Assembly: GCA_964629945.1 (NCBI GenBank)
Contig: CAZVTD010000001.1
Coordinates: 1 to 56,850 of the forward strand
Origin: an uncultured Planctomycetota bacterium
GTDB lineage: Bacteria; Planctomycetota; DG-23; DATKVD01; CAZVTD01
Reading direction: 5' to 3'
DNA: 56,850 nucleotides
How positions within the stretch are numbered: the stretch's first letter is position 1; every line of letters starts with the position of its first letter. Below are positions 3,929 to 56,850 of the stretch, one piece after another. The position numbers were made by a program, and so were the translations under genes. Below the pieces are notes generated by a model. It was not told the DNA's origin, did no database searches, and saw only the letters and a program-made list of their open reading frames with translations.

Positions 3929-3943
3929 TGGCGGACCGTCACC

Positions 3944-5182
3944 TCAGATCCCGTAGATCCGCTTCGGATTGTCATAGAGCCACGTTTTGAGGACCGCGAG
4001 GGCTCCGTCGGTGTCGATCATCCCCCGGCGGATGCGTGCCGCGAAGACGCGGGAGAGGCTTTCGCGTGCCATTACCCAGTGACCGTAGGTGAGCTCCGCG
4101 TTCCAGTGGTAGTCCGCGCCGAAGCCGATCACCTTGCTGGTCGGGACGAGGTCGAGATATTCGGCGAGTCCGTTTTCGCACATGACCTGGCTGACCAGGG
4201 GCGACCAGCACAGGTTCAGCGACACGTTGGGGAGGTTTTTACCGACGAAGGCCATCTCCCTCACCGCGGGCATTCCCATGTGGAACAGGTCGAAGTGGAT
4301 GTCCGAGAAACGACTGAGCGTTTCGAAGAAGTTCATCACGTACTGGCTGCGGAAATCTCCCCAGACGCCACAGTGCACGGCCACGACCTTTCCCGTCGCG
4401 CGAATCTCGCGCAGGGCCAGTTCATGGAGAAAGCGGTTCATGTAGGGCTGCTCGGTGTCGGTCAGGGTCTCGCCCTGGATGACCCGGGTCAGCAGCCGCT
4501 GCACGACCTGTCGATCATACGGTCCCATGACCACCGCCTGGGTTTTGAACCCGACGACGCCGGCGTCGACCGCGTCCGCGATGAATTTCTCCAACGCTTT
4601 GAGGATCTGCTTCGGGGTCCGCATCGGTCGCCCGGTCGTCTTTTCGTAGTAGTCCAGTTGGTCCCGGGTGTTCAGCCTGGGCAGGTTCACGATCACCCGC
4701 ACGAAGTCGTCGCCGGCGTATCCCTTCCAGTCCACGTTGCAGGCGATTACGCGCTCGATGCCGCACTTCTTCCCCAGGGCTTCCCGGAGGAAACCGGGAC
4801 GGTTGTTCTCGTTCAGCTTTTTGCCGATCTCCTCGAAGTTGGCGTCGGTGACGTCGTCCTGTCCGAACCATTCCTTGAGCGACAGTCTCAGTCCCCGGGC
4901 ATAGGTCCCCCACCGCACAGCAGCCCAATACGGCTTCACCGTCTCCCACTTCTGCCGGGCGGTCAGGGTGTTATCCCACGGGTCGAAGCTTCTGGAAAGT
5001 CCCGCCGAGTAGAGGTCCTGGATCAGATATCCGTGCAAGAGCCAAGCCCAGTCGAACCGCTTGGTCAAACGCTCCTGCTCCGGCTTGATGTGCTCGTGGG
5101 CGTCGATGAGGGTTATCTTGCCCATCGCGTCGAACAACTCCTGCTGCAGCTCATCCAGCTCAATCCGGTCCTTGAACGTCAT
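3944..5182 (-). CDS. amidohydrolase-fold (TIM-barrel metal-dependent hydrolase) family protein
   Basis: LIDAHEHI near the N-terminus is the HxH metal motif. I trimmed the ORF from 5404 to the ATG at 5182, which follows GGAGAGGAAAGGA. It sits 15 nt upstream of the anSME gene, so the two likely form an operon. Confidence 0.6.
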   Translation of the reverse strand: MTFKDRIELDELQQELFDAMGKITLIDAHEHIKPEQERLTKRFDWAWLLHGYLIQDLYSAGLSRSFDPWDNTLTARQKWETVKPYWAAVRWGTYARGLRLSLKEWFGQDDVTDANFEEIGKKLNENNRPGFLREALGKKCGIERVIACNVDWKGYAGDDFVRVIVNLPRLNTRDQLDYYEKTTGRPMRTPKQILKALEKFIADAVDAGVVGFKTQAVVMGPYDRQVVQRLLTRVIQGETLTDTEQPYMNRFLHELALREIRATGKVVAVHCGVWGDFRSQYVMNFFETLSRFSDIHFDLFHMGMPAVREMAFVGKNLPNVSLNLCWSPLVSQVMCENGLAEYLDLVPTSKVIGFGADYHWNAELTYGHWVMARESLSRVFAARIRRGMIDTDGALAVLKTWLYDNPKRIYGI

Positions 5183-13600: not shown

Positions 13601-14110
13601 CAGGACCGTATCACCGACCAGCACCGTTCCGTTGGCGGTGTGGATGTTCCCGTTGTTGATGAGCGCTCCCCCGGACGTCGTGAAGCGGTCGACCCCGCCC
13701 AGAAAGTCCGCGTCGGTGATGTTGCCCGCCGCCGCGAAGAACTGACTGGCATTGATCGTCGCACCGGCGCCGATGACCACTCCGGCGGGGTTGACAAAGT
13801 ACACCTGTCCGTTCGCCTGGATCGAGCCCAGCAGATAGGACGGGTCCCCGCCGATCACCCGGTTGAGGATGCGGGCCTGTTCACTGGGCTGAATGAACCG
13901 GACGGCCTCGTAGGCATCGACGTTGAACTTCATGTAGTTGACGATCGTGTTGTTCGCCGCGTTGATGGTCGTTTGCGAGCCGGATTTGGAAACAGTCGCC
14001 GACCCTTGCACCACCTCGCTGACCTGGATTTCACCCGCCCAGCCCCGGGCGCTCTGAAAAATCACGCTCAGAACCACCAGGATCCGCAGACATGCCCCGC
14101 GACGCTTCAT
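7694..14110 (-). CDS. two-partner-secretion exoprotein (TpsA, filamentous haemagglutinin-like), 2138 aa
   Basis: A signal peptide (MKRRGACLRILVVLSVIFQSARGWA) is followed by a TPS domain (NYMKFNVDAYEAVRFIQPSEQARILNRVIGGDPSYLLGSIQANGQVYFVNPAGVVIG). The rest is long Gly/Thr/Asn-rich beta-helix repeats. I chose the ATG at 14110 because GAGGAG lies 8 nt upstream. Confidence 0.9.
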   Translation of the reverse strand: MKRRGACLRILVVLSVIFQSARGWAGEIQVSEVVQGSATVSKSGSQTTINAANNTIVNYMKFNVDAYEAVRFIQPSEQARILNRVIGGDPSYLLGSIQANGQVYFVNPAGVVIGAGATINASQFFAAAGNITDADFLGGVDRFTTSGGALINNGNIHTANGTVLVGDTVLNTGSIVSDNGLVAMCSGKEVYLAKTDSGVKIRVDNLDASTGAGSQVSSGTGGVGVSNQGSVEAEEVVFSCGDVYSLAVVNSGQVRSKGGSVTLSGNAEVRNTGQIDVSNRSAGGVGGRVKMLGETVVVEHGSIDASGSAGGGEILLGGSYQGSGQERNASLTFVNPDSTIVADATDTGNGGRIIVWSNDKTGFYGALSAKGAMDGFGGFAEFSGLGTLGLGGQISLTGGQGLGTLLLDPANIIVALGGGGSYSDVSTFGAASGSDVTIAPSTLDDVGGNVALQATNNITVSDALMLNTEGASLSMRAGNNVTVDAPVTTSGGTITMTANDRFGTQTGSGSILINANLSTTGNGATGANVTFNVDGGTGSVDLNAPLDLGTTGSVVAGSAETVRVMSNAASIQDAIDAVTSGGTVKVLPDSYTENFSISKSLSLIGVETDGTTEAWTTGTAGASGTAPVLSATSGTIITLAADDVTISGFDIDTTLGTAQKGISVTGSSDALTLRYCTFDYDSTDLAVTFNPSLNDLVFDGTTIDHSIFNAHGSTESWAILMGNATDLAITNNTFDTGIKFAVGGGSQVTSDVLISGNTFNDYDSPGIKFIRDGSGSIGEDFVIEQNDFNSRSIGIYFFATSDDGSTDPDADYSLTASNFSDAITIQHNKFHAFGSGTEYALQVAEDDTALAITIDARENYWDSVNGPTYDENRLNVGSQGAEILNGGSATIKISPWWSTLTNDAVGAYAGTLLIAVENVTTNVAYTSFADAIAAAAPGDELRAVAGLYGEDVVIDKDLTINGTTDLDEFTTAYSWTSNTSTSVQLGGNFATTGGNFTFNGEVTLDADTVLNSAGGNILFGALNGGGYDLTLAAAIGTGTTTFGGVVSDLGSGVGAALTVEDGVTGWVTFSDALSTTSGLLVQGSDSQVRFDGAVTLGNGDTGTTIEGDLVVGATCSAIRSNDGFTVAGSTVLENGTSSLQLNTNASSMTFHAFDAGDRNVIVRSGTGSGSLTFAGAVTNLGSGLGPALTVESGVTGTIRFQDTLSANSGLSSLNGSNLRFDGDVTITGDTNGTSLGGNVTLDGMTFSTDGDLVLGTSTSNSITLSGLDVVLDVADQDVTLKGTVNGSSSFTIQAGSGNVTINGPIGATTSPSNLTVSGAEISTTAALKAAYDITMTANAGNLTLGGNLTADDTIQLNAPAGALIQTSGTVTAWTVDLNSADGVYGQLDLESLGLEDDPPSGYDNLSFFISATNVSAAVTGAGKINLENACSGNTIIDSLTTAGGYINYTNTGSGTLYVNGAVTSGVTGVVDGGDINIVAAGPVVLNASVDSSSGTGGTITVINGVTVNVAPTAGAGDILVVGSEGEISDLYINTAIVRASDISLSSERDIYIRSDVITTEGYNITLTADSDNDGVGGVLVYEAGNIESGGTLTITGADLYLTTDVVDAIVIESDLAAAQLTAVGNITLTVSDVAPEDALIRILGLVQSTGDGYVAVYGTEAGVHLDGSIVPDTYLISAAGGVYFDAPVTLLGNTALNSAYLGSESDEIADGSIWFVDTLDGAFALTLNAGAGNIYGYEYVGATTSLGGLTVTSAGTVQFSGDVSTKGQDGQAGGDIIVDAEGDIIFEGDIDTSGGDAVAGAGLDGGTVRLTSAEGSVTVEGITTSGSDAVAGAGGDAGDVTLQPATSLTLQEIVDGDYFPDAMLEIHGDIIAEGGAGVGGADGAGGHVALSPAGRSAVSAVATITNGTDGGDITIRAGSIEMGQNEKFTVVDGDLNLLADGAITLGDLTVSGDLTVVSGSGVITALLRETGLVLLADGTTTTDTGLDIICGGTMSITGTVHYGGVAGSSLPVFAAGAYAQPVLAEGSTQLTLTSALSALVYDSTRVLDAVATGEAGPPGISPNEFVQTMPGMPNEGLFTPASRHWTKMLFKSLDENWDGYLDYDEFKACFGETQAWFASIDKNDDKKLSLEEFQAAVY

Positions 14111-14183
14111 TTTCCGATCTCCTCGTTGCATAAGCGGTTGGCTCCTTTAATCCTGCAGTTCACCCGTACCCCGGGGAAGCCTG

Positions 14184-16007
14184 CTAGAAATTCACCCCCA
14201 CGGCGAAGTGCACCATTGCATCTCCCTTGTCCACCGATTCCGTGCCATTGTCCATGGACTTGAGGGGAACCCCCACGTCGATCTGAGCAAAGAGGTTCTT
14301 CCTGATCCGGAGATTCAGCCCCACGCCCGCGGACGTCAGCGTCCGGTCCTTCTCGTAGCTGAACGCGTCGTTGTACGTCGTGCGTCCGATATCCACAAAC
14401 GCCTTGGGAACCAGATCCCAGGAGGCGGGCTTATCCTTTGAACGTTTCAGCAGAGGAGCCAGGTGGAAGCGGTATTCCGCGGTCAGAACCACTGCATTGT
14501 CCCCGGCCACAATCCACTGTGGATAGCCGCGAACCGAATACAAGCCGCCCATCGGATACATGAAGCTCGGGGACACCCGGGCGTCCCCGAACACGTATTG
14601 CCCGCGCAGCGAGGCGAAGACCTCGTGTTTGGCCTCCGTGTAGGGGACACTCCAGTCCAGATACGTCGAGTAATCCAAGTTGTACTTCAACGCACACCAG
14701 GTTTTGGACGGCTCGCTCCGCCCCAGAGGCTCCAGGTCTTCCTCGTCGGTCCTGGTTCCACCCAGTTCCAGGATCAGCGACCCGTTCGTAACCGTGCCTC
14801 CGGAACGGTAATCCAGCTGCAGGCCCGCATATCCGAACAGGAAACTTCCTTTGCCTTCCGTGCTGATCAGGTCGTTTTCCGAGGTCACGTGGGTGAACCG
14901 CACGCCGGCCAATCCGTCCAGAAACATCGAGCGTTCCTGCCAGAGAATTCCTTTCAGTTCCCCGCCCACCTGGGTGCTCGTGCCGCTCAGGTCCGTATTG
15001 AACAGTCCGATTTCGGAAGCCATATACTGCGCCCACGAACCATAGAGACGCCCCCGCAGAAGACCCAGATAGGATATTTCCTGGAGGGGACACTCATAGC
15101 TTCCGACCACCTGGTGGACCGAATCGAAGTCCGCCGTCACGTAGTCCAGGGACAGGACATCGTCCCGTCCCGTCACGTCGAAGAGCCGGAAACTGAAACG
15201 TTCCCGCAGTTCTTCCGTTTCTTCCGTTCCCGTGTTATCCAGGCTGAAATAGAACTGCCAGGGCTTCAGTTCGTGCACCACGTAATCCATTTTCACCTCC
15301 CCCGGACGCTCGCCGGGACGGATTTCCGTCTCCACTTGCTTGCTCGGATTGCGATTCAGCCGGGCCAGGTATTCGTCCACCTCCTCGACGTTGACCGGAT
15401 CCCCCTCCTGGACCGGCGATTTCTCGCGGATTGCCTCGTATTTCGACCCGTCCCCGGATTTTTCCTCTCCATCAACGCCCTTGACGACGGTCCCGACCTC
15501 ACCGACAACCCCCTCCGTCACCGTGAAGTAGAGCACCCCACCCGTCTTGCCCGCCAGCAGTTCGTCAATCGCCCGCTTGGTCATGGAGACTCGAACCGCC
15601 CCAAACCCTTCCTCCTGAATGCCTTTCGAGGCAGCTTGCATGACTTCCTGCATCGCCGCCGCCGTCAGGATTGTCAACCGATCCCCGGAAGCCTTTCCAA
15701 TTTCACCCAAAGTCAACGTTTTGCGAGGCAGGTCGGCCCCTTCGCTTTCGGCGTAATACACCTCCGAATTCCGAGCCATTCCCACCGCAAACGTCACTTT
15801 TTGCTCCAATAATTTCCTCTCCGAAACCGTCTTTCCGCTCAATCCCTGAAACCCCACGCCCTTGACGACCACGGGGTCCAGTCCCTTCCCTCCTCCCGAT
15901 TCCTGGGCCCACAACATCCCCTGGGCCAGCAAGATCGCCAAGACCCCCAGAAACCGAATCGGACCAGGACGGTCGCCTATTCCTCCGCAAGCACCGCTTC
16001 CAAGCAT
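14184..16007 (-). CDS. TpsB outer-membrane transporter (ShlB/FhaC/HecB family)
   Basis: It has a signal peptide, a POTRA-like N-terminal part, a beta-barrel with alternating hydrophobic residues, and a terminal ...VHFAVGVNF. An AGGAGG RBS lies 5 nt before the ATG at 16007. It sits directly upstream of tpsA. Confidence 0.8.
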   Translation of the reverse strand: MLGSGACGGIGDRPGPIRFLGVLAILLAQGMLWAQESGGGKGLDPVVVKGVGFQGLSGKTVSERKLLEQKVTFAVGMARNSEVYYAESEGADLPRKTLTLGEIGKASGDRLTILTAAAMQEVMQAASKGIQEEGFGAVRVSMTKRAIDELLAGKTGGVLYFTVTEGVVGEVGTVVKGVDGEEKSGDGSKYEAIREKSPVQEGDPVNVEEVDEYLARLNRNPSKQVETEIRPGERPGEVKMDYVVHELKPWQFYFSLDNTGTEETEELRERFSFRLFDVTGRDDVLSLDYVTADFDSVHQVVGSYECPLQEISYLGLLRGRLYGSWAQYMASEIGLFNTDLSGTSTQVGGELKGILWQERSMFLDGLAGVRFTHVTSENDLISTEGKGSFLFGYAGLQLDYRSGGTVTNGSLILELGGTRTDEEDLEPLGRSEPSKTWCALKYNLDYSTYLDWSVPYTEAKHEVFASLRGQYVFGDARVSPSFMYPMGGLYSVRGYPQWIVAGDNAVVLTAEYRFHLAPLLKRSKDKPASWDLVPKAFVDIGRTTYNDAFSYEKDRTLTSAGVGLNLRIRKNLFAQIDVGVPLKSMDNGTESVDKGDAMVHFAVGVNF

Positions 16008-16258
16008 GCAGACCTCCTATCCCAAACCAGGCACCCCGCTTCGCTCGTCGCTTACGCAGTGGCAGATCGGCGTCGTCCAACAACTCGACACCCTCAGCCG
16101 ACGGCATATCCGCGACGAGTTCATGGATTGACACTCTAGGTTGCAGCGAGACCGGTTTTCACAACCATGCGTGCGATTTTTCTCGAATTGGAGGGGGAGC
16201 ATCCCCGAGGATGATGTCCCTCATTGTCACGACGAGAGTGCTACGGTTGGAGGGCGGA

Positions 16259-47593: not shown

Positions 47594-49168
47594 TCAGCCC
47601 GTCTCCTCTCCGGCTGGCCCGCCGTCCACGGGCAGCCTGATCTCAAACCGCGTGCCTCGTCCAACCTCGCTCTCCACGTGGATCAGCCCGCCGTGCGACG
47701 TGACGATGCCGTGCACCACCGGAAGTCCAAGACCGGTCCCCTCGCCGATGTCCTTCGTGGTAAAGAAGGGCACGAAGATCTGTTTCACAGTCTCCGGACT
47801 CATCCCGACGCCCGTGTCTTCGATCACGAGGAAAACGTCTTCTCCCGACGTCCGCGTCTCCACCTTCAGCTTGCCACCCTCGGGCATGGCCTGGATGGCG
47901 TTGACCACCAGGTTCACCAGCACCTGCGTCAGCAGCGCCGCGTCGCCTACCATGTCAGGCAACCCCGGCAACAAGGAACGCTGGACCTCAATTCCCGCTT
48001 TGACACAGCGCGCTTCCAGGAAGTAGAGTCCTTCTTCAATGACCGTGTTCAGGTTGATCGACGTCTTTTTCGATGGCACCTGGCGTGCGAAGACGAGCAG
48101 TTTGCTGATGATCTCCCGGGCGTGGACCGCTGCCCGTTCGATTTTGCCGAGGTCATGACCGGCCTGCTCCGGCAAGCCGGAACTCTTCTTGGCCAGTTGA
48201 GCGAAGCCGAGGATATTGCCGAGCGGCTCGTTCAACTCGTGTGCGACGCCCGCTGCCAGCTGCCCGATGGTCGCCAGCCGGTCGGCGTGCATGAGCTGCT
48301 CCTGCAACTGCGACCTCTCCACTTGGGTCTGACGCCTCTCAACGATGAACCCTACCTGTCGAGCCACCGCGTCGATGAGATGCCGTTCTTCTCTCAGAAA
48401 CGGACCTTCGTCACGCTCCGGCTTTGCCTCGGGATAGGCAACCTCCACGGAACCCCTTGACTGCCCTTTGACCAGGATGCCGGCTCGCTGCGTCTGCTCA
48501 CTTCCCAACCAGCTTCCGGTCGAATACTCCTGCCCGTCCAGCAGAATCCGTGCTATTGCGTCGGGATACTGCCAGGCCGGGGGAAGCAGTGCGACGATGC
48601 GCCGCATCATGTCTTCCAGAGAAATTCCGGGCGTTTCCGTGACCTGCGCTATCCCGTAGAGACACGTCAGCTCCTTGACGCGTTCCCGGAGCGCAGCGTG
48701 CGAGCGTTGACCGACTAATGCCGTCGCCAGCGCCTGGGCAACGTCCTCATAGCAGCCCCGCTCGGTCTTTGTCGGTCCCCCGCTTCTTCGCCAGGTCAGG
48801 AACAGGGTCCCAATTCTCATCTGTCCCACCGCCAGAGGAAGGATGACCCGTAGTCTCCCTGATTCCTCAGAAGCTCCGGAGGGAACCGGCGAGATGCTCT
48901 CTTCGACTGGCTTTTTGAACTTCGTGACTTCAAGACAAGGCGGGCCTTCACCGTTCCCTCTCGAACGGTATTGAGTGATGTGGTTCCCGTCCATGACCTG
49001 GAGCTCGACCTCTTCGCACCCCGAGAAGCCCATGAGTATGCCCGCAACCTCAGAGGCATATTCCGCTTCAGGCAGTCCGGAAAGCGCCTGTTCCAGGATG
49101 CGGCGCGACAACACCCGGAACTCTTCCTGCGAATGACCCGTCTGGACACACTTCACGGCATCCCTCAC
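47594..49168 (-). CDS. cytoplasmic GAF-domain sensor histidine kinase
   Basis: No TM segment is seen. GAF-like N-terminal modules are followed by an H-box (VAHELNEPLGNILGF) and HATPase motifs (NLVVNAIQA, GTGLGLPVV). The start is GTG 49168. Confidence 0.85.
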   Translation of the reverse strand: MRDAVKCVQTGHSQEEFRVLSRRILEQALSGLPEAEYASEVAGILMGFSGCEEVELQVMDGNHITQYRSRGNGEGPPCLEVTKFKKPVEESISPVPSGASEESGRLRVILPLAVGQMRIGTLFLTWRRSGGPTKTERGCYEDVAQALATALVGQRSHAALRERVKELTCLYGIAQVTETPGISLEDMMRRIVALLPPAWQYPDAIARILLDGQEYSTGSWLGSEQTQRAGILVKGQSRGSVEVAYPEAKPERDEGPFLREERHLIDAVARQVGFIVERRQTQVERSQLQEQLMHADRLATIGQLAAGVAHELNEPLGNILGFAQLAKKSSGLPEQAGHDLGKIERAAVHAREIISKLLVFARQVPSKKTSINLNTVIEEGLYFLEARCVKAGIEVQRSLLPGLPDMVGDAALLTQVLVNLVVNAIQAMPEGGKLKVETRTSGEDVFLVIEDTGVGMSPETVKQIFVPFFTTKDIGEGTGLGLPVVHGIVTSHGGLIHVESEVGRGTRFEIRLPVDGGPAGEETG

Positions 49169-49182
49169 AAAAGCAGGAGCAA

Positions 49183-49434
49183 ATGGCGGATGAACACGAT
49201 GATGCAGACATGCTACCGACGACTCCGGCGGTTGGCAACTCAGAATCCAGGGCCCCCCAGAGTGCGTTCAATGCGCTGCATATGTCATCGTTCGTCGAGC
49301 CAGGAGCAGCAAAGCCGAGAACAGACGTAGCAAAAAGTGCAGCATTTTCTCGCCAAAACGTCGCAAAAAACGCAAAAATACACAGCCAAACCGAGCGTTT
49401 TGGAGTGGAACCGAGTACAAGAGAAAAGGCGTAA
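49183..49434 (+). pseudogene. integrase 3'-tail remnant, copy 3
   Basis: It contains ..AVGNSESRAPQ.. (a decayed WLGNS block) and KSAAFSRQNVAKNAK.. The stretch from 49327 is about 75% identical by eye to 40222-40300 of copy 2. Confidence 0.45.
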
Positions 49435-49453
49435 CCCCAAACGGGGTTACGCC
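49428..49453. terminator. perfect 11-bp stem / 4-nt loop hairpin (terminator-like)
   Basis: The sequence is GGCGTAACCCC-aaac-GGGGTTACGCC. An A-tract lies on the left, giving TTTTCTC after the stem on the minus strand. TTAT lies on the right. Confidence 0.5.
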
Positions 49454-49514
49454 TTATGCCACTCCAGAACTTCAAAGGCGTTCAATGCGAAAACGCCTCT
49501 ACATATAAAAGTAC

Positions 49515-49600
49515 CCCCACGGGGAATCGAACAATCGCGTTTTCGGGCCCAAAAACGCCGATTTTCGAGGATGGCGTAGCAGAAAGCGGTACACTTTCTC
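49515..49600 (+). repeat. direct repeat A (~86 bp) upstream of fic; decayed integrase-tail/att-like sequence
   Basis: The sequence is cccccacggggaatcgaacaatcgcgttttcgggcccaaaaacgccgattttcgagg..gcgtagcagaaagcggtacactttctc. It is about 80% identical by eye to 51457-51543. Confidence 0.6.
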
Positions 49601-49774
49601 CCTATCCCCTTGCAGCAACATGTGTTAGCGTTCTTGCCACCCGTTATCCGACGTCCTTCCGTAACGCATTCCACAACAAATGCCGCATCTATAACGAAAT
49701 CCACTGCGAAGTAACGGTTTTCCCTCCACATGGCAGCCATCGAGGCCGATAAATCGCGCATATAACACTTTCTC

Positions 49775-49802
49775 TTGACAACAGGCCCCCTGTAACGATA
49801 AT
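49775..49802 (+). promoter_or_regulatory. sigma-70 promoter TTGACA-N16-GATAAT for fic
   Basis: TTGACA lies at 49775-49780 and GATAAT at 49797-49802. GTAACG motifs sit at 49661, 49711, 49792 and 49812 around it. Confidence 0.6.
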
Positions 49803-49837
49803 TCTCCGGGCGTAACGGTTCTTTCAGGAGAAACGCC

Positions 49838-51373
49838 GTGTCTAACAATTCTAAGCCCAGTGGACCCACTGGCAGACCCGCAGGCTATGCCGCCCTTATA
49901 CGGCGATATGATCTGCGGGTCATTCCCAACTGGCATGAGTCTGTGGTCGGTTCGTCCGGCTCCCGACAAACCCACCAGGATGGCCTGCGCATCCGTGAGC
50001 TCTTTCCAGCATCCTATTGGCCTGGGGATGGTCTTGGTGACCAGTTGGAATTCGCGCTGAAATACGATGGCATCAACCTGTCAATTCTAGCCCTGCTCTT
50101 CCAGAAGATCAACCTACAGGAACTGACTGACTACATCCGCTCGAAGCCAACCGGATGGAACGCCAGGAGGATCTGGTATCTCTATGAGTTCCTGACAAGG
50201 AAACGCCTGGAGCTCGATGACCTGATCCAGGGCAACTACGTCGACCTTCTCGATGTAAAGTCATACTACACCGCGAAACCGCGAAGGGTGCGCCGTCAGC
50301 GCATTAACGACAACCTTCTTCAGGGACCGGACTTCTGTCCTGTCGTTCGCCGCACGGCACGATTGGAAGAGTTCGTCAAATCCGATCTTCGGGCGAAGTG
50401 CCTTGACCTGGTCGAGTCCTATCCAGAGGACGTTCTCAATCGGGCCCTGAGTTACCTCTATACCAAGGAGACCAGGTCCTCCTATGAAATCGAGCACGTG
50501 CCCACTGACACATCAAGGACCGAGCGCTTCGTGACTCTGCTGCGTCAAGCAGAGAAGGATGACTTCCTTGGCAGAGAATCCCTGGTTGCCCTTCAGAACC
50601 AGATCGTCGACGAGCGTTTCAGGGACCGGGATTACCGGAAGAGTCAGAACTATGTTGGAGAAGCTGTGCAGTGGCAGAGAGAGCGAGTGCACTTCGTCTC
50701 CCCTAAGCCGGAAGACTTGGCAAGCCTGATGGAAGGGCTGCTCGCAATTCACGAACGGATGGTCGAGAGCGATGTCGATCCCGTCATTCACGCTGCCATT
50801 GTGGCCTTCGGGTTTGTGTTCATTCACCCGTTCGAGGACGGGAACGGGCGAATCCACCGGTTCCTCATCCACAACATCCTGTCCAGAAGGGGATTCACTC
50901 CGAAAGGGGTCATGTTCCCCGTGTCGGCGGCGATGCTGAACGGCCGGGCGGCCTATGATGCGGCGCTGGAAGCGTTTTCCAGACCGCTGTTGCGTCTGGT
51001 GGACTACACGCTCGATGATGTTGGCCAGATGACCGTCCACGGCGAGACAGCGGAATACTATCGCTACATCGACCTGACGACCCAGGCCGAGGCGTTGTTC
51101 GACTTCATAGCCAGAACCATTGAGACGGACCTTGTCAACGAACTGGAGTTCCTGCGGAGCTACGATGGTGCGAAGAAGGCCATCCCTGAGATCGTGGACC
51201 TGCCGGATAGGCTTCTCGACCTGTTCATCAGGTTCTGTCTGCAAAACAAAGGGGAGCTGTCAGCTGGAAAGCGAGCCAGGTTCTTCGCCAGCCTGACCGA
51301 TGCCGAAATTCAGAAGATGGAGCGTGCACTTCAGGAGGCCTTCCACCTCACAACTCCGGATGCACTTGGATAG
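49838..51373 (+). CDS. Fic family protein (AMPylase/adenylyltransferase fold)
   Basis: The core motif is HPFEDGNGRIHRF. The start is GTG 49838, with AGGAGA 7 nt upstream. Confidence 0.9.
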   Translation: MSNNSKPSGPTGRPAGYAALIRRYDLRVIPNWHESVVGSSGSRQTHQDGLRIRELFPASYWPGDGLGDQLEFALKYDGINLSILALLFQKINLQELTDYIRSKPTGWNARRIWYLYEFLTRKRLELDDLIQGNYVDLLDVKSYYTAKPRRVRRQRINDNLLQGPDFCPVVRRTARLEEFVKSDLRAKCLDLVESYPEDVLNRALSYLYTKETRSSYEIEHVPTDTSRTERFVTLLRQAEKDDFLGRESLVALQNQIVDERFRDRDYRKSQNYVGEAVQWQRERVHFVSPKPEDLASLMEGLLAIHERMVESDVDPVIHAAIVAFGFVFIHPFEDGNGRIHRFLIHNILSRRGFTPKGVMFPVSAAMLNGRAAYDAALEAFSRPLLRLVDYTLDDVGQMTVHGETAEYYRYIDLTTQAEALFDFIARTIETDLVNELEFLRSYDGAKKAIPEIVDLPDRLLDLFIRFCLQNKGELSAGKRARFFASLTDAEIQKMERALQEAFHLTTPDALG

Positions 51374-51456
51374 TCACTGGATCGGGGCAGAACGTAACTT
51401 GGTACGACTCCATGCGAGTCGGTGCCACGCAGTTCCCCTTGGTGCAACTCTCTCAC

Positions 51457-51543
51457 AGCCACGAGGGACCGAACGATCGCCTTTTCGGGCCCAAGAACGC
51501 CGATTTCGGAGACCAGCGTAGCAGGAAACGTATCACTTTCTTC
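51457..51543 (+). repeat. direct repeat B (~87 bp) downstream of fic
   Basis: The sequence is cagccacgagggaccgaacgatcgccttttcgggcccaagaacgccgatttcggag..gcgtagcaggaaacgtatcactttctt. It is the partner of repeat A. Confidence 0.6.
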
Positions 51544-51612
51544 TGCCCACGATTCAGCCACCGTTATGGCCGTTTGCCTCAATCTCCACGCAGTTCTCCG
51601 ATGCGCAATGCT

Positions 51613-51660
51613 GGAGGTCGCAGGTTCAAAGCGGAGGCAGGATTCGAACCTGCGACCTCC
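51613..51660. repeat. 15-bp perfect inverted repeat GGAGGTCGCAGGTTC / GAACCTGCGACCTCC with an 18-nt spacer
   Basis: The arms lie at 51613-51627 and 51646-51660. The right arm is part of the tRNA fragment, and the left arm is an inverted copy of its variable/T-stem region. Confidence 0.7.
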
Positions 51661-51670
51661 GGGTTATGAG
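51630..51670 (-). other. tRNA-Met/Ile2(CAU)-like 3' half (att-site-type fragment, not a functional tRNA)
   Basis: The minus strand reads CTCATAA-CCCGG-AGGTC-GCAGG-TTCGAAT-CCTGC-CTCCGCT. These are the anticodon loop, 3' anticodon stem, variable loop, complete T-arm and 3' acceptor strand. No matching 5' half lies upstream. Confidence 0.65.
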
Positions 51671-51706
51671 TGTCCGAAAGCTGATTCCTGCTGTCATCTG
51701 AACCGA

Positions 51707-52123
51707 TCACGGCAGCTTTCGTTTCGCTCTTTTCGGTTTCGCGTCGAAGAGCTTCAGCACCTTCTCGCGAAGATACCGCTGAACGAAAGAGTTCATGGTG
51801 CCGTCGGGATAGAGCACCCGGTTGCCGATGAGCAGCTCCAGTTTTCTGTCAAACAGGCGGTCATAGACAACCGACTTCGCAATGAGTTCCTCTCGCGAGT
51901 ACTGGGCGTTCTTCCACAACCATTGCCATACCTCGCTTTCGGTATCGGTGGTTAATGGGCTGAGCTTGGAGATTCTACGAACGGTGATGTTGGACCAGGC
52001 CAGTACGATCTTGGTCAGTGCTTCATCCTCACCCACGACCAGGACGGTCTCCGGCTTCTCGTTCTTCTTGAACCATTCCAACTTTTCGTCAAACAGGTCG
52101 TTCTCCAAAGCACTTCTCCTCAT
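51707..52123 (-). CDS. hypothetical 138-aa protein with a basic C-terminal tail (KPKRAKRKLP)
   Basis: This clean ORF is the last gene of the four-gene minus-strand operon, 13 nt after the DUF523 stop. I recognise no family. Confidence 0.55.
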   Translation of the reverse strand: MRRSALENDLFDEKLEWFKKNEKPETVLVVGEDEALTKIVLAWSNITVRRISKLSPLTTDTESEVWQWLWKNAQYSREELIAKSVVYDRLFDRKLELLIGNRVLYPDGTMNSFVQRYLREKVLKLFDAKPKRAKRKLP

Positions 52124-52136
52124 TGACGGGGCCGAT

Positions 52137-52613
52137 TCAGGGGACTCTTATCACTCTTATGCCCGCACGACGGAGCACCTCGCCGGTCACTCCCTCACGG
52201 TCACAGGACGGACTGCCACCCTTTAGATACGCGCGACGGGCTCCCACGATCCTCGCAATCTCAAGCGTGTAATTTGCACCGTCCACATGAAAGTCAGTCA
52301 CGTCACGGCCGTTCTCGGGTGCGATGATACGTAACCCTTCGTCCAAGACCTGTGCCCCGGTTCCGCCGGCGAGAGTCTCGCCTGTCCGAGGTGTGGGCAT
52401 GCCGCCCAACTGTTCGGGGCAAACAGGCACCAATACGTACTTCTTCTTGAGTTGGCGGATGAGCTTGTCCCGCCTCTTTGCCCGGCGGCCATGCCAGCGA
52501 CAAGGCACCCCCAGGAAACAGGCACTGATCAAAATGGGCTCCAACAGAGGACGAGCCTCTCCATCGGCAAAGAGGGTTCCGGTTGCAGGTTTCATGTCGG
52601 CAGTCCTCTTCAT
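52137..52613 (-). CDS. DUF523 / TudS-like [4Fe-4S] protein (thiouracil desulfidase family)
   Basis: ISACFLGVPCRWHG and VPVCPEQLGG supply the three family Cys residues. An alternative start is ATG 52595 (GAGGA upstream). Confidence 0.7.
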   Translation of the reverse strand: MKRTADMKPATGTLFADGEARPLLEPILISACFLGVPCRWHGRRAKRRDKLIRQLKKKYVLVPVCPEQLGGMPTPRTGETLAGGTGAQVLDEGLRIIAPENGRDVTDFHVDGANYTLEIARIVGARRAYLKGGSPSCDREGVTGEVLRRAGIRVIRVP

Positions 52614-52622
52614 GTCGTATGA

Positions 52623-53795
52623 TTACAAGACACAATTACACCGTCCCAAGCGGTCCTCCAACCGCACGGCTTTCCAGACCTCGGGCTCCTCCAGACAGAG
52701 AGCCAGTTCAATATCAGGACACATCTCCCGCGCAGCCCGAATGAGTCGGTCGTATATCGCGATGCGTATTTCCGAAGCGTATCGCATCCTTCCGTCGTCG
52801 GATTTGATCGAATCCCCAATTCGCTCCGAAATGGGGTTTCGTCTGGAAAGCTTGCGTTCCATGAGTTGCCGGGCGCCTTTGTAGATGCAGATCCCCCCGA
52901 ACGTGAGTCGCGAGAGCGAGACCGTCTCAAGAAGTTTTCGAACGAAGCGCACGTAATACGTCTCCCAGCCCTCCATGGGGATCACGGGCATGATAACTGC
53001 ACGGACCGGGTAACCTAGGTCGGCACATTGCCGCATGGCCTCGATGCGTTCCTCGACCAATGGCACGTTTTCCTCGAAGGCTTCGGCGATCTCCGGCGGA
53101 TTCAGGCTCCATGAGAGAATGGTCTGCCCGCCGTGTTCCAGATCAAGCAGCCTCTCAACGTGGTTGCTCTTGGTGAGCAGAACCTGCCGGGCATAGGGAT
53201 GTCTTGCGAAAAACGGGACAATCGCTGTCGAGTAAGCGGTAAGCGGATCGAGCGCGAGGGAGTCCTGAAGCTTGCCTAGGTAGAAAGCCGTGGGCTCAGC
53301 CAACCGACGGGCTATTGTATCAATCTTGGTTATCATCTCAGGAAGGTTGACGTAGACCTTGACCGTCGGAGAGAACCAGACGCCCTGCGTCCCGGCAAGA
53401 TAGCAGTACTTGCAGCCGAAGGGACAATACCCATAGGGTGAAAAATGCCAGTAGTTCGGACAGGTGTTCCCCTCTTCTTGGCTGAAGCGCACCGAGTCTC
53501 CCAGCTCTCCGAACACCAGCGTGCGCTTGCCGATCCTGTGACGGGCCAGAGGGTCCGCTTCACCAAGTTCAATTCGATTGTGAGGCGTGTCCGGGCAATC
53601 CACCTTGTCGGCCTCCGGGTAGAGTCGGACAATACCTTCGACAAACGAACGCCGTTCAGGCGTGCTGAGACTGCCCTTGGCGAAGTAGATACGCTCGACC
53701 TGGAAGTGATCCGGACAGGCTGGCTGATACTCCGTGGGCAGAGAGCACCAGCCGCCGGAATCAAAAGGAAAGGCGTTCTGTCCCACGCTTTCCAT
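52623..53795 (-). CDS. spore-photoproduct-lyase-family radical SAM protein (SplB-like)
   Basis: The radical SAM cluster is CPFGCKYCYL (CX3CX2C), in a ~390-aa SPL-like layout. The ATG lies 2 nt after the methyltransferase stop. Confidence 0.65.
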   Translation of the reverse strand: MESVGQNAFPFDSGGWCSLPTEYQPACPDHFQVERIYFAKGSLSTPERRSFVEGIVRLYPEADKVDCPDTPHNRIELGEADPLARHRIGKRTLVFGELGDSVRFSQEEGNTCPNYWHFSPYGYCPFGCKYCYLAGTQGVWFSPTVKVYVNLPEMITKIDTIARRLAEPTAFYLGKLQDSLALDPLTAYSTAIVPFFARHPYARQVLLTKSNHVERLLDLEHGGQTILSWSLNPPEIAEAFEENVPLVEERIEAMRQCADLGYPVRAVIMPVIPMEGWETYYVRFVRKLLETVSLSRLTFGGICIYKGARQLMERKLSRRNPISERIGDSIKSDDGRMRYASEIRIAIYDRLIRAAREMCPDIELALCLEEPEVWKAVRLEDRLGRCNCVL

Positions 53796-53797
53796 AT

Positions 53798-55069
53798 TTA
53801 CGCCCTCGTTCCGGATTCCATGGCACCTCGCTCACGCACTTTGATTGCCCCTGGACAACGCATTGCTTTCAGGCCAGTTAATGCCTCCCATCGACGGACA
53901 ATCAGGTCACAGTATGCCGGAACTCTCTCCATGAGAAAAGCCCTTCGTCCTGTCTGCTCCGCTGCAATGAGCGTGGTTCCTGACCCCCCGAAAGGTTCAA
54001 GCACAGATTCTCCGGGGCGAGTGTAGGCTTGAAGGCAACGATAAGGTATCTCCACCGGACAAATCGCCGGGTGACCATGTTTCTCTCTTTGACCGGTGAT
54101 CGGCGGGATCTGCCAGACATTCGTCTGATAATCCGACATGTATTCCATCCCCTCACGGCTCATTTGCGGCATCTTCCCGGCCTTCTGAAAAACCAGAAGC
54201 GCCTCCCACTGAAACGCAGGATAGTAATACCGATTTCGCCGAATGTGGCAATTCCTCGGAATCGAGAAGTTGGCCCCGCTCTTCACCCACATGATGGTAT
54301 CCAGATAGCGTAGCCCAGCCTGCCCCAGGAAACACGAGTGCCGGCTGACATGATCGTGCCCCGTGCTGCTCCCGCTTCCGATATTCCATACAAGAACGGC
54401 TCCCGCCTTCATGCGATCTCGACAGTTCTCCGCAACAACCAACATGTCGTTGAGGTAGCTGTCGTAGTCATCCCAATGAGAGTACTCCCTCTGGTTGAAG
54501 TAAGGAGGACCAGCAAATACATTGTCAACAGGCGGCCCTTCTGTCAACAGTTCTATCCATTCAGGATCCTTGGAATCGCCGCAAAGAAGTCGGTGATTTC
54601 CGAGTATCCACAGATCGCCGGTTTCGGCCTGAACGTCATCGTCGAATGCGGGCAGCGCGTCCTCGTCGCTGGAATCGCAACCAAAAAGCGTGCGCAGGTC
54701 TTCCTCGCTGAACCCCAGATCCTTGAGATTTACATCTTCCTTCAACAAGTCCTCCAGAGATCTCTTGAGTTTGGGGAGGTCCCAATCCGCAATCTCGGCG
54801 GTCTTGTTGTCTGCTATGGCAAATGCCCGCTGCTGGGTGTCAGTCATCTCAATCATGATGACCGGAACCGTCTTCATCTCCAGCCTCTGAGCCGCTTTCC
54901 AACGAGTATGCCCTGCGATGATGGTGCCGTTCTGATCGCACAGAATGGGAACGTTGAATCCAAAGCTTTGAATGCTTTGCACGACTGCATCTATGGCCCC
55001 ATCGTTTAGACGCGGGTTGTCTTCCCAGGGCCTCAACCTTGAGACCTCCATCTCTTGGACTTGGAGCAT
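53798..55069 (-). CDS. ParB-like nuclease domain fused to an N4/N6 DNA methyltransferase (beta-class)
   Basis: The ParB-N part is VSRLRPWEDNPRLND..IIAGHTRWKAA. The methyltransferase part has HRLLCGDS, motif IV as FAGPPYF and motif I as EPFGGSGTT. I chose the ATG at 55069 (GGGAG upstream), which lies downstream of the predicted TSS. Confidence 0.85.
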   Translation of the reverse strand: MLQVQEMEVSRLRPWEDNPRLNDGAIDAVVQSIQSFGFNVPILCDQNGTIIAGHTRWKAAQRLEMKTVPVIMIEMTDTQQRAFAIADNKTAEIADWDLPKLKRSLEDLLKEDVNLKDLGFSEEDLRTLFGCDSSDEDALPAFDDDVQAETGDLWILGNHRLLCGDSKDPEWIELLTEGPPVDNVFAGPPYFNQREYSHWDDYDSYLNDMLVVAENCRDRMKAGAVLVWNIGSGSSTGHDHVSRHSCFLGQAGLRYLDTIMWVKSGANFSIPRNCHIRRNRYYYPAFQWEALLVFQKAGKMPQMSREGMEYMSDYQTNVWQIPPITGQREKHGHPAICPVEIPYRCLQAYTRPGESVLEPFGGSGTTLIAAEQTGRRAFLMERVPAYCDLIVRRWEALTGLKAMRCPGAIKVRERGAMESGTRA

Positions 55070-55172
55070 CCCTAACTCCCATTTAACAAAGAACTTATGT
55101 TGACGATACATCCCCGATTGCCTATGAGGCGCTCGGCACGGAGATCGACAGAGACAGTCCCCGCACCAGTAC

Positions 55173-55200
55173 AGTGTAGCACGCATTACAGGATTGTCAA
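55173..55200 (-). promoter_or_regulatory. sigma-70 promoter TTGACA-N16-TACACT for the methyltransferase operon
   Basis: The minus strand reads TTGACAatcctgtaatgcgtgcTACACT. It sits in an AT-richer divergent intergenic region. Confidence 0.5.
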
Positions 55201-55282
55201 TCAGAGGCAGAAAAATAACCTATCAGTCATTCTGTCTGTGAGGGACGCTTTTTGCTCCTCCAAGACAAGTTTCATGAAGAGC

Positions 55283-55312
55283 TTGCACAACAGGTCAGCC
55301 ATCTGGTAGGAT
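55283..55312 (+). promoter_or_regulatory. candidate sigma-70 promoter TTGCAC-N18-TAGGAT
   Basis: It lies on the plus strand upstream of the second radical SAM gene. Confidence 0.35.
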
Positions 55313-55394
55313 CCAAATTGGTAAAGCTCTCTTCACGTCAGAAGGCTTATGCGAATCGTGATCGAGAGGCCGTAGGCACCTATACCTGTTTCCG

Positions 55395-56114
55395 GTGCCA
55401 CTCCGTATCTTAGGGAGTATGCCACTCAGGAACGTGCGAGGCCGGTCTATGCCCCAGGAAGACAAGGCGCCCTGCGCTAACATCGAGTTCGAGGATCGGC
55501 GGGCGACGATCTTGTCCGGATCCGATCTGAATTGTCTCCACGACGTATCCACCATCAACATCACGCGCGGCTGCGCGCACCGCTGTATCTACTGCTATGG
55601 CCAGGGATACTCCAGTTACCCTGGAGCGGGCCGGGTTGTGTTTTACCGGAACCTTGCGCAGAAACTCGAAGCAGAACTCTCGCGCAAACGAAAGAAGCCC
55701 GTCCGGGTCTACTTCAGCCCGTCCTGCGATGCGTTCCAACCGCTGGATGCAGTGCAGGACGCGACCTATGAGATCATGGGCATCCTGCTTGCCCGGAAGG
55801 TTTCGATTGCCTTTCTGACAAAGGGACGAGTCGGCGAGAGATTCCTGACGCTCTTCCGCGAACACTCGGGATCGGTTCACGCCCAGATCGGCGTGACCAC
55901 GCTCGATACCGCCATCGCGGGGAGACTGGAGCCGGGGGCAGCAACGCCCGCTGACAGGCTTGCCAACGTGCGAGCACTGACACAGGCAGGCGTGCCGGTT
56001 ATGGCTCGCCTCGACCCGCTGATCCCGTACCTGACAGACTCATCCGAGAACCTCAAGCCCCTCTTCGAGGAGATTGTCAAGGCGGGAGTGAAGTCGCTGG
56101 CGGTGCAGCCATAG
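55395..56114 (+). pseudogene. radical SAM protein (COG1533 / DNA-repair-photolyase-like), 3'-truncated
   Basis: It has a GCAHRCIYCY cluster. Good coding continues to ..EEIVKAGVKSLAVQP-stop, where it runs into the antisense fucosidase remnant. The start is uncertain (GTG 55395, ATG 55419 or ATG 55449). Confidence 0.6.
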
Positions 56115-56850
56115 ATGGCGCGCCCGTGCAGGCGCATCCACTCGCCGATGCCGTGCAGACGTTCGACAGCGCGTGGGTCGAACTGGCCACGCGCGTTCGG
56201 GCCCACGTTGAGCAGCAGGTTGCCGCCCTTCGACACTGTGTCGATGAGCATCTGTACCAGCATTTCGACGGACTTCCAGGTGTACTCGTCGCGGTAGTAG
56301 CCCCAGGAGCCGCTGAACGTCTGACAGGCCTCCCAGACTACTGGCTTGCCATCGACATGGAGCCAGCCGCGCGGCTGATACTGCTCCGGCGTTCGGATGT
56401 CGCCGCCGATCTCAAGGCGATCGTTGACGATGATGCCGGGCTGGAGGCCGCGGACCATCTTGATCAGTGCTTCCGAGTCCCAGTCATCCTTGCCCTTGCC
56501 CTTGGACCAGCCCCAGTCGCTCTTCGAGTACGAGAAGTCGAACCACATGATGCTGATGTCGCCGAACTGGGTGAGGAGCTCGCGCGTCTGGCCGTGGAGG
56601 TAGGCGCGGTACTTCGCTATGTCGCGGTTCTTGTTCGCCTCGCGATACTCGAGGTTGTCGCGCATAGGGTGCAAGCCGTCGACGACGAACTCGGGGTGAT
56701 GCCAGTCGATCACGGAGTGGTAGAAGCCGACTCGTAGACCCTCATTGCGGAAGGCGTCGTCCATCGGATGCAGCAGGTCGCGCTTGGCCGGGGTGGTCGT
56801 GGCCTTGTAGTCGGTGAGAGCGCTGTCCCAGAGGCAGAAGCCGTCGTGGT
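56106..56850 (-). pseudogene. GH29 alpha-L-fucosidase fragment (5' end beyond the window, 3' part missing)
   Basis: Minus-strand translation from the window edge reads HDGFCLWDS..LRVGFYHSVIDW..GGNLLLNVGPNARG..HGRAIYGCTA. Genuine-looking coding stops near 56106-56112. The in-frame continuation to 55877 is antisense to the radical SAM gene. Confidence 0.7.

Follow-up and report, generated by a model that had tools for sequence, protein, structure and literature searches.

In a 56,850-nt stretch of contig CAZVTD010000001.1, from an uncultured Planctomycetota bacterium (GenBank assembly GCA_964629945.1), four closely spaced genes encode a fusion of a ParB domain with a methyltransferase (MTase)-like domain (g1), a radical S-adenosylmethionine (SAM) enzyme resembling spore photoproduct lyase (SPL; g2), a DUF523 protein (g3) and a small hallmark protein (g4). 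This whole stretch is referred to as the window, and its positions are numbered over its full length. Our results indicate that these genes represent a cassette found in more than 50 bacterial species of at least 8 phyla, whose conserved core is constituted by the ParB domain, the MTase-like domain, an SPL-superfamily radical SAM enzyme and g4, with DUF523 as an accessory component; the cassette forms a self-contained islet of 3-5 kb at tRNA 3' ends, usually lacking an integrase. Regarding its function, the sequence evidence leads us to favour, tentatively and at somewhat less than an even chance, a horizontally mobile, damage-inducible cassette that would process DNA lesions. We rate it as kin of the known cassettes in which a ParB protein partners DNA-acting enzymes, its new features being the radical-SAM core, the subunit g4 and an unusual spread.

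Conservation and architectures of the cassette

The locus set was obtained by scanning one genome per species for g4, which yielded 56 loci (designated by L numbers; 960 kb of fetched sequence), 52 of them with a g4 open reading frame (ORF), and every ORF of these loci was subjected to tblastn and iterative profile searches, from which the architectures were read. The hosts belong to Chloroflexota (Dehalococcoidia), Planctomycetota, Myxococcota, Thermodesulfobacteriota, Hydrogenedentota, Poribacteria, Gemmatimonadota, Fibrobacterota and Bacillota, and the complete Chloroflexota genomes with the cassette include OY969814.1, OZ252215.1 and OY969567.1. The cassette includes an SPL-superfamily radical SAM gene in 43 of the 52 g4 loci and a ParB_N domain in 35 of them; DUF523 stands alongside an SPL-type gene in 9 of about 27 SPL-type loci, the window included, and SPL-type genes occur together with a second kind of radical SAM gene, of the PA0069 type, in the window, L006, L024 and L043. 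The search was also run in reverse, from g2, which has 1972 relatives at E<1e-10, the top 120 being all 62-72% identical; among blind-picked homologues, a ParB-MTase gene upstream together with a g4 homologue downstream was found at 2 independent places, in addition to 1 decayed remnant.

A first-pass annotation, made from the letters of the window, had proposed these four genes as a unit that had not been described before. Neighbourhood mining finds them syntenic in dozens of species across phyla; the ParB, MTase-like, radical SAM and 138-aa (g4) components are confirmed as the core, but DUF523 is optional. The literature search likewise returned no description of this ParB/radical SAM/MTase/g4 combination. 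Chance juxtaposition of the genes in a decayed prophage or island, without any joint function, would agree with the lower G+C of the region (~0.55, range 0.54-0.57, from 49 kb onward, vs ~0.61 across the rest of the window) and with the presence of a tRNA scar, repeats and a truncated gene; nevertheless, the same gene set, order and tight spacing recur across many phyla, in dozens of species whose proteins are 50-70% identical, and the cassette is absent from viral contigs, so that the synteny data exclude this explanation, to which we assign a negligible probability.

Four architectures were distinguished. In architecture A, the type of the window, the order is ParB-MTase, SPL-like radical SAM enzyme, DUF523 where present, and g4. 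Architecture B consists of c7 (~540 aa), a PA0069-type radical SAM enzyme, a ParB_N protein and g4; architecture C, of a ParB_N protein plus a PAPS-reductase/4Fe-4S protein, DUF523 and g4; and in architecture D, g4 comes first, followed by ParB-MTase and DUF1848 (L040) or by a 250-aa radical SAM protein. Thus, the Fe-S accessories of the cassette, namely the DUF523/TudS-like and PAPS-reductase/ferredoxin-like proteins, are optional. Like g4, c7 represents an unannotated family: it has no Pfam match, and its profile found nothing significant among PDB sequences. It carries a VDVGAGSG motif, and the fold matches of its AlphaFold2 (AF2) model (pLDDT 85.7) are mostly class-I SAM MTases, albeit weak (best E 2e-3, probabilities up to 0.98). 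On this basis, architecture B probably provides the same four functions on separate genes.

Variation around these architectures was also observed. The cultured Desulfatibacillum alkenivorans DSM 16219 harbors two diverged copies of g4 plus ParB-MTase (L021 and L040), one of them with DUF1848 replacing the SPL-like gene and with an AbiEii-like gene within an islet bounded by attachment (att) sites. In L039 (3-4340), and likewise in L028, g4 is present at both ends (g4, ParB-MTase, SPL-like gene, DUF523, g4), the two copies having diverged to 52% and 46% identity to the query; g4 comes first in L016, L040 and L049. These double-ended and g4-first orders look like circular permutation or tandem arrays. 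In L005 (6464-8765), a dnaN (beta-clamp) gene and a 298-aa ORF without Pfam match are located in front of the SPL-like gene; a LexA-type box precedes the 298-aa ORF, which may stand in for ParB-MTase. The ParB-MTase gene is often split or shortened next to an intact SPL-like gene and g4 (L013, L015, L035, L038, L042, L045, L049, L050 and L063), which may reflect sequencing frameshifts in some assemblies, or else the MTase-like part could be dispensable.

Protein families of the cassette

Pfam searches of g1 recovered ParB_N (5e-11, residues 42-127) and N6_N4_Mtase (2e-30, residues 220-430 of the long ORF), with the ParB boxes NPR, GHTRWKAA and ADNK kept and with MTase motif IV placed before motif I (GPPY ahead of FGGSGTT). 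The SAM-binding motif I (FxGxG) is intact, and EPFGGSGTT occurs in 9/9 g4-linked sequences; motif IV in these nine reads GPPY in six and GPPC, SPPR and APPC in one each, and never (D/N/S)PP(Y/F). The first reading of g1 as a fusion of ParB with a beta-class DNA MTase is therefore upheld in architecture and motif I, but not in the canonical catalytic motif IV, and, because this motif is non-canonical in g1 and its relatives, amino-methylation of the canonical kind is doubtful. The ParB-MTase fusions of phages and plasmids (PHROG 498; PADLOC MTase_II PDLC03229) share the architecture of g1 and match it over the full length (1.9e-89 and 3.4e-63, respectively); in contrast to the PHROG 498-type fusions, the g4-linked clade displays GPPY, GPPC, SPPR or APPC, is always followed by a radical SAM gene and does not occur on viral contigs. 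In PADLOC-DB 2.0, only the generic MTase_II/oMTase models match g1, and no system-specific model matches g2, g3, g4 or the divergently oriented radical SAM gene described below.

The labels initially given to g2 and g3 are sustained by profile searches. The g2 product matches the SPL family PF20903 (1.7e-31; 109.8 bits vs a cut-off of 27) as well as Radical_SAM, and is alignable to the SPL of Geobacillus thermodenitrificans over ~290 residues (3.5e-27), with its cluster motif C124-x3-C128-x2-C131 aligned to the SPL cluster cysteines and the Tyr-Cys-Tyr arrangement kept. The position of the catalytic H-donor cysteine of SPL (C140 in G. thermodenitrificans, C141 in B. subtilis), mapped via the mutated residue in the 4FHE/4FHG chains, is occupied in g2 by Lys175, within GKLQD, and this lysine is invariant in 34 members of the g2 clade. 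Both this replacement and the equivalog score (123.3 bits vs 400 for TIGR04070) rule out g2 as an SPL orthologue, and the TIGR03886 score is also below cut-off (60 vs 437). Five further cysteines (C112, C303, C367, C386 and C388) are invariant in the clade and suggest an additional metal or Fe-S site. In summary, g2 shares with SplB (TIGR04070; PDB 4FHC) the PF20903 domain, the ~290-residue alignment, the CxxxCxxC motif and the Tyr-Cys-Tyr arrangement, and is presumably a DNA-directed 5'-deoxyadenosyl radical enzyme too; unlike SplB, it has a C-terminal extension ending in CNC(V/L), the five extra cysteines and an operon with ParB/MTase and g4. Moreover, the cassette hosts (Chloroflexota, Planctomycetota and others) are, to our knowledge, not spore formers, unlike those of SplB.

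The g3 product matches the 2-thiouracil desulfurase family PF04463 (1.4e-22; 80.7 bits vs 34.7), and in its alignment with TudS 6Z92 (E 2.6e-10) the blocks SAC(F/L)LG, CPE and GSPSC correspond, keeping the three cluster cysteines, the CPE glutamate and the SPSC serines. Unlike TudS/RudS, it has no DUF1722 partner and sits, as an optional member, in a DNA-directed cassette. DUF523 proteins reportedly act on tRNA s4U. The conserved active site, the action of DUF523 proteins on thiouracil and the adjacency of tRNA genes in 22 of the 52 loci could be taken to mean that the cassette acts on tRNA or other RNA, DUF523 (like RudS) and the radical SAM enzymes removing or repairing thiolated or cross-linked tRNA bases, in which case the tRNA neighbourhood would be functional. 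We regard this as very improbable: the adjacent tRNAs are of at least 11 identities and the tRNA-half repeats are a sign of integration rather than co-function, most cassettes are devoid of DUF523, and the ParB_N and N6/N4 MTase folds are DNA-directed.

A second, divergent COG1533-type radical SAM gene had been noticed beside the operon, and it was found to be of the PA0069/Rv2578c type, although the truncated window copy scores well below the NF033668 and NF038135 cut-offs (108.7 vs 360 and 95.3 vs 430), which means similarity at the family level only. It belongs to the same group (COG1533, 'DNA repair photolyase') as PA0069, Rv2578c and the radical SAM gene of architecture B, and elsewhere members of this type lie in line with g4. 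On their chromosomes, PA0069 and Rv2578c stand alone, whereas the cassette enzyme has ParB, an MTase-fold protein and g4 as partners on a tRNA islet.

The protein encoded by g4, which had been described as having no recognisable family, is indeed without match in Pfam, NCBIfam, PADLOC and PHROGs. Its 138-aa and 133-aa forms differ by start codon, the latter being an exact match in the assembly index. The family comprises 533 relatives in a 90%-identity database and 552, at E<1e-3, among 50%-identity representatives, nearly all of 130-140 aa, with an invariant W..W.WLW, a block NR.LYPDGT.N..QRYLR and a basic tail KPKR..K. The AF2 model is confident (pLDDT 88, pTM 0.80), and the order of secondary-structure elements in its C-terminal half is that of a winged helix; Foldseek searches against PDB and BFVD gave nothing significant (best E 3 and 0.7, MarR-like proteins among the weak matches), and the g4 profile had no match among PDB sequences. 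Rare fusions join g4 to a C-terminal TPR array (P0135, P0142, P0144, P0158, and L048 at 2355-4301) or to a phage zinc-finger DNA-binding domain. From the model and these fusions, g4 might, with low confidence, be a DNA-binding adaptor or regulator. In L001 (2430-4232), a 600-aa TPR protein and a 1788-aa protein without Pfam match share a tRNA-Met-bounded island with DUF523-g4.

Islets at tRNA genes and the surroundings in the window

In many loci, the cassette is directly flanked by tRNA genes, of at least 11 identities. T-arm motifs with a paired stem were found 27 times within 1 kb of the cassette ends (93 kb) vs 18 times in the remaining 503 kb, an eightfold enrichment (Poisson P=4e-16) concerning 22 of 52 loci. 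The clearest borders enclose little else: in L002, exactly ParB-MTase, the SPL-like gene and g4 (3.7 kb) lie between tRNA-Pro and a perfect 45-nt repeat of its 3' half, and in L040 (D. alkenivorans) tRNA-Ala and a perfect 47-nt repeat delimit g4, ParB-MTase, DUF1848 and the AbiEii-like gene (4.4 kb), with no integrase inside either islet. The tRNA-Met half of the window reappears in L001 on both sides of the island, also flanking g4; in L009, a tRNA-Gly half follows g4; and in L051 and L055, just the 3' end of g4 is left, beside a tRNA. The window holds one tRNA half only, and in most loci no second repeat was detected. Tyrosine recombinases are present in 4 of 56 loci, those of L009 and L010 being located outside the module, past the tRNA-derived repeat or fragment at its border; presumably, the islets were moved in trans. 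The 90 nearest non-cassette ORFs represent 115 Pfam families, none in more than 3 loci, and are mostly of housekeeping type, with 2 integrases, 2 IS200 transposases and few defence matches.

The first-pass view of a mobile module with a tRNA-fragment att scar thus gains support from the tRNA-half direct repeats that bracket cassettes and from the T-arm motifs enriched at their ends. Conversely, a setting of phage, prophage or defence-island type was not corroborated, as IMG/VR viral contigs contain no relatives of g4 and the flanks are mostly housekeeping genes. Cis-mobilisable elements (CIMEs), or integrase-less tRNA islets, are a known kind of element, and the cassette has in common with them the tRNA 3'-half direct repeats, the lack of a recombinase inside and the tandem arrays with other islets (L002, L001 and the window); unlike CIMEs, it carries the same cargo across many phyla, whereas random decay would not be expected to yield such recurrence. 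Next to the L002 islet, a third tRNA-Pro half closes a second integrase-less islet (10889-16048) that contains only a response regulator and a 989-aa sensor kinase. Histidine-kinase/response-regulator genes, which flank several cassettes, were considered as fellow travellers and discarded, their 25-48% identity corresponding to generic superfamily similarity.

These features raise the question of whether the cassette is itself a maintenance or mobility module of tRNA islets, responsible for stabilisation (addiction), control of excision and integration, or circle replication, with g4 as a directionality or att-binding factor. It is the sole content of the L002 islet and has one extra gene in L040, T-arm motifs are concentrated at its ends, g4 borders the att side with its 3' end and C-terminal remnants of g4 persist by tRNAs in L051 and L055; besides, the gene order is circularly permuted in some loci, g4 is located at both ends of L039, tyrosine recombinases are scarce, and SOS control is common in mobile elements. 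However, no cassette protein resembles a recombinase, transposase or replication initiator, radical SAM/Fe-S enzymes are without a known role in DNA mobility, the 45-47-nt direct repeats bear the mark of a conventional integrase, and such an enzyme could act in trans, and in most loci the second repeat was not found. We therefore consider a mobility function improbable.

The features of the window are collected in Table 1. The arrangement first described, four minus-strand genes separated by 2, 9 and 13 nt, is exactly reproduced by the coordinates of the ORF list. The proposed TTGACA-N16-TACACT promoter is present at a fitting position and is plausible, but the motif is not significant in itself (2 sites vs 1.9 expected by chance in a 5-kb scan) and falls within the long g1 ORF. 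Because of the latter, the true start of g1 is most likely the ATG at 55069, preceded by GGGAG and giving 423 aa, which is also the start picked by gene callers on identical metagenome contigs. ARAGORN found no whole tRNA in the window, and Rfam (E-value threshold 1) gave no match over 48000-56850. The 112-nt stretch after g4 folds at -41.9 kcal/mol (z = -2.9); as its hairpin is without a T-run, a classical terminator was ruled out.

Table 1. Position and description of the operon genes and neighbouring features in the window
Feature	Position	Strand	Description
g4	51707-52123	-	Hallmark protein (133-138 aa), 138 aa, C-terminus KPKRAKRKLP
g3	52137-52613	-	DUF523/TudS-like Fe-S protein, 158 aa (152-158); accessory part of the cassette
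g2	52623-53795	-	SPL-like radical SAM enzyme, 390 aa; contains CPFGCKYCYL
g1	53798-55069 (long ORF to 55186)	-	ParB_N + beta-class N6/N4 MTase-like fusion, 423 aa
Sigma-70-like promoter TTGACA-16-(TG)TACACT	55200-55173	-	~105 nt 5' of the g1 start codon; 10/12 positions match
One-mismatch GAAC-N4-GTTC (LexA-type) box TCAACATAAGTTCT	55090-55103	-	~20 nt 5' of the g1 ribosome-binding site
Divergent PA0069/Rv2578c-type radical SAM gene	55395-56114	+	Truncated in the window
tRNA-Met 3' half, anticodon loop to acceptor stem	51630-51670	-	att-type remnant, 37 nt downstream of g4
18-bp inverted repeat	51613-51660		T-arm region of the tRNA-Met fragment and its inverted copy
Contig-specific break	56105-56141		alpha-L-fucosidase fragment beyond

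Between 49487 and 56105 or 56141, the window is matched at 99.7-100% identity by four metagenome contigs. In these sibling contigs, the divergent radical SAM gene is complete, with 328 aa (two ORFs in L057), and is followed by FGase, HD and TCAD9 genes; in the window, by contrast, the final ~700 nt (56105-56850) hold an alpha-L-fucosidase fragment that lacks its N-terminus and is joined to the truncated radical SAM gene, a junction not shared by the identical siblings. Thus, the abrupt breakpoint seen at first as the edge of the module is real, but it is specific to this contig and, since 100%-identical sibling contigs continue without it, is no element boundary; judging from this comparison, it is probably a misjoin or assembly chimera at the contig end, or a strain-specific rearrangement. 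Past the break, in the sibling L058 (565-4119), the divergent gene is adjoined by genes for an HD-domain protein and for a 769-aa product weakly matching TCAD9, together with a small P-loop-like ORF; these may belong to a separate conflict system dependent on nucleoside triphosphates (NTPs). On the other side of the operon, a Fic gene (49838-51373) is a full-length match to the PADLOC candidate system PDC-S24 (3.8e-187) and is bracketed by an imperfect direct repeat of 83-90 nt (49517-49599 and 51459-51541; 80% identity) with only two copies in the window, which looks like a separate 1.9-kb islet inserted beside the cassette. The sibling contigs L058 and L060 stop just short of the left Fic repeat.

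A LexA-type operator and the candidate functions

An operator was first seen by eye in the sequences upstream of the cassettes and then tested as a pattern; a k-mer search (k=9) had found no shared upstream words. Ahead of the first cassette gene, on the coding strand, the pattern AG[TCA]ACA[TC]N[TA]GTTCT follows a good -10 hexamer by 0-14 nt in at least 15 independent cassettes of architectures A and B (L005, L006, L012, L015, L018, L022, L032, L035, L037, L038, L050, L052, L053, L061/62 and L064/65), with near-matches in L017 and L043. Its AT-spacer form is found nowhere else in the fetched loci, and a looser pattern is enriched upstream (P=1e-6). In many hosts, a GAAC/GTAC-N4-GTTC box, in the LexA-type operator form AGnACAnnTGTTCT, overlaps the cassette promoter. 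The intact box of L061 is AGAACATAAGTTCT; that of the window, TCAACATAAGTTCT, has the same spacer and right half and a mutated left half, so it is probably a decayed copy of the operator that is intact in related cassettes. Elsewhere in the window, GAAC-N4-GTTC occurs 2 times vs 1.4 expected, both in coding sequence.

The cyanobacterial LexA box is GTAC-N4-GTWC, and GAAC-N4-GTTC is reportedly the LexA motif of Dehalococcoides. The motif of Gram-positive LexA is likewise GAAC-N4-GTTC (PMC3323433, PMC9578287). As for the relatives of the divergent gene, Rv2578c/dhaA coincides with a LexA ChIP-seq peak and displays RecA-dependent induction (PMC3381160), and a preprint, in a statement citing Cirz 2006, places PA0069 among 15 SOS genes of Pseudomonas aeruginosa (bioRxiv 10.1101/2022.03.14.484287). 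Both stand-alone genes are LexA-controlled, and many cassettes carry a LexA-type box. Because of the SOS-type operator and this published SOS control of PA0069 and Rv2578c, we favour a damage response over defence or anti-restriction.

According to the lesion-processing reading, the box would be a host LexA operator, and therefore DNA damage would switch the cassette on. By analogy with the ParB partners of other base-modifying enzymes, the ParB domain may load the complex onto DNA, where the MTase-like domain, devoid of the canonical catalytic motif, might serve for SAM binding, base flipping or recognition rather than for methylation of an exocyclic amine. The SPL-like enzyme would then act on a DNA base lesion other than spore photoproduct, in which an abnormal bond would be broken or rearranged by means of a 5'-deoxyadenosyl radical; g4, a probable winged helix with a basic tail, would act as a DNA-binding targeting or regulatory subunit, and DUF523, where present, may remove or handle a sulfur-bearing base. 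This proposal fits the operator, the SPL fold, the housekeeping flanks and the fact that PA0069 and Rv2578c are SOS genes. A known parallel is the imuA-imuB-dnaE2 SOS mutagenesis cassette, reportedly a multigene, LexA-regulated damage cassette horizontally dispersed across phyla like the present one; its proteins are unrelated, whereas the cassette studied here is att-flanked at tRNA genes and relies on Fe-S/radical chemistry.

Several points weigh against lesion processing. PA0069 and Rv2578c work without ParB, MTase or g4, so a simple repair role leaves these partners unexplained, and ParB paired with a SAM enzyme usually marks a DNA modification system. Photoproducts are unlikely to form in the dark, anoxic habitats of the hosts. 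The window box is degenerate and not significant alone (~0.25 expected by chance), so SOS control of the window operon itself is at most a possibility; the box is found mainly in Chloroflexota hosts, to which nearly all named carriers belong, and it may be bound by a regulator that the cassette itself encodes, for instance g4, instead of LexA. The DNA-binding role attributed to g4 derives, in turn, from weak fold hints and fusions. Lastly, neighbours of conflict type, namely Fic (PDC-S24) and TCAD9/HD here and AbiE, DndB-like, type IIG restriction-modification (R-M) and TOTE genes in some loci, hint at a conflict context.

The most serious competitor is a DNA base-modification (epigenetic or hypermodification) system, in which ParB loads the complex, the MTase-like and radical SAM enzymes install a mark, possibly containing sulfur or carbon, and g4 reads or targets it, for self/non-self discrimination, anti-restriction or defence. 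Such systems typically have ParB-like partners: DndB (with DndACDE) and DpdB (with DpdA) are ParB-type proteins of DNA modification systems. A ParB-like protein is also required for the action of a phage thymine dioxygenase (ParB-5mYOX; PMC13229309). With all of them, the cassette shares an N-terminal ParB domain (NTP-binding fold) encoded with a DNA-altering enzyme; unlike the ParB-5mYOX, DndB and DpdB systems, its partner is a radical SAM lyase-like enzyme, not a dioxygenase, PP-loop or TGT enzyme, and it adds g4 and the SOS-type operator. A mark-installing function would also suit the intact SAM-binding motif of g1, the extra invariant cysteines of g2, which suggest an auxiliary site as in sulfur-inserting radical SAM enzymes, the variant that pairs ParB with a PAPS-reductase/4Fe-4S (DndC/IbrA-like) protein and DUF523, a mobility like that of R-M systems, and the conflict neighbours already mentioned (Fic PDC-S24, TCAD9/HD, the AbiEii-like gene within the L040 islet, DndB-like and type IIG R-M genes in L064, and TOTE in L008). 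However, PADLOC matches are limited to generic MTase models, the conserved set includes no nuclease or other effector gene, the catalytic motif of g1 is non-canonical, few of the 90 nearest flanking ORFs are defence genes, viral contigs do not contain the cassette, and an SOS-type repressor box is unusual for constitutive self-marking. On balance, we judge base modification rather unlikely, yet clearly worth considering. The TOTE gene of L008 (5323-8064) is an AEP primase-helicase fusion (PF22548, 5e-95) located immediately downstream of g4.

Returning to lesion processing, its most specific form would be a new radical-SAM DNA repair pathway of mostly anaerobic bacteria, in which a ParB-type NTP clamp and a re-purposed MTase-fold base-flipper deliver a non-photoproduct lesion to an SPL-like lyase with an auxiliary metal site, with g4 as DNA- or lesion-binding subunit, the pathway as a whole being SOS-induced and passed between phyla on an integrase-less tRNA islet. 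Such a detailed scheme is speculative and, taken as a whole, unlikely; if true, it would give a function to the SOS genes PA0069 and Rv2578c.

Beyond the choice among these readings, the cassette has implications for several protein families. It defines g4 as a new family (~550 clusters at 50% identity) whose confident model lacks a known fold match, and, as far as the motifs indicate, an MTase clade that would have lost the canonical catalytic motif and retained the SAM-binding one. In at least 8 phyla, this compact cargo is found repeatedly in tRNA islets that are att-flanked and integrase-less. The COG1533 'SplB-like' genes are widespread, with members belonging to the SOS regulon in both P. 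aeruginosa and M. tuberculosis, and the cassette supplies conserved partners for them (ParB, the MTase fold and g4) together with a testable regulatory signal; with D. alkenivorans DSM 16219, a cultured carrier of two copies, as a possible experimental host, the function of SplB-like genes becomes experimentally approachable.

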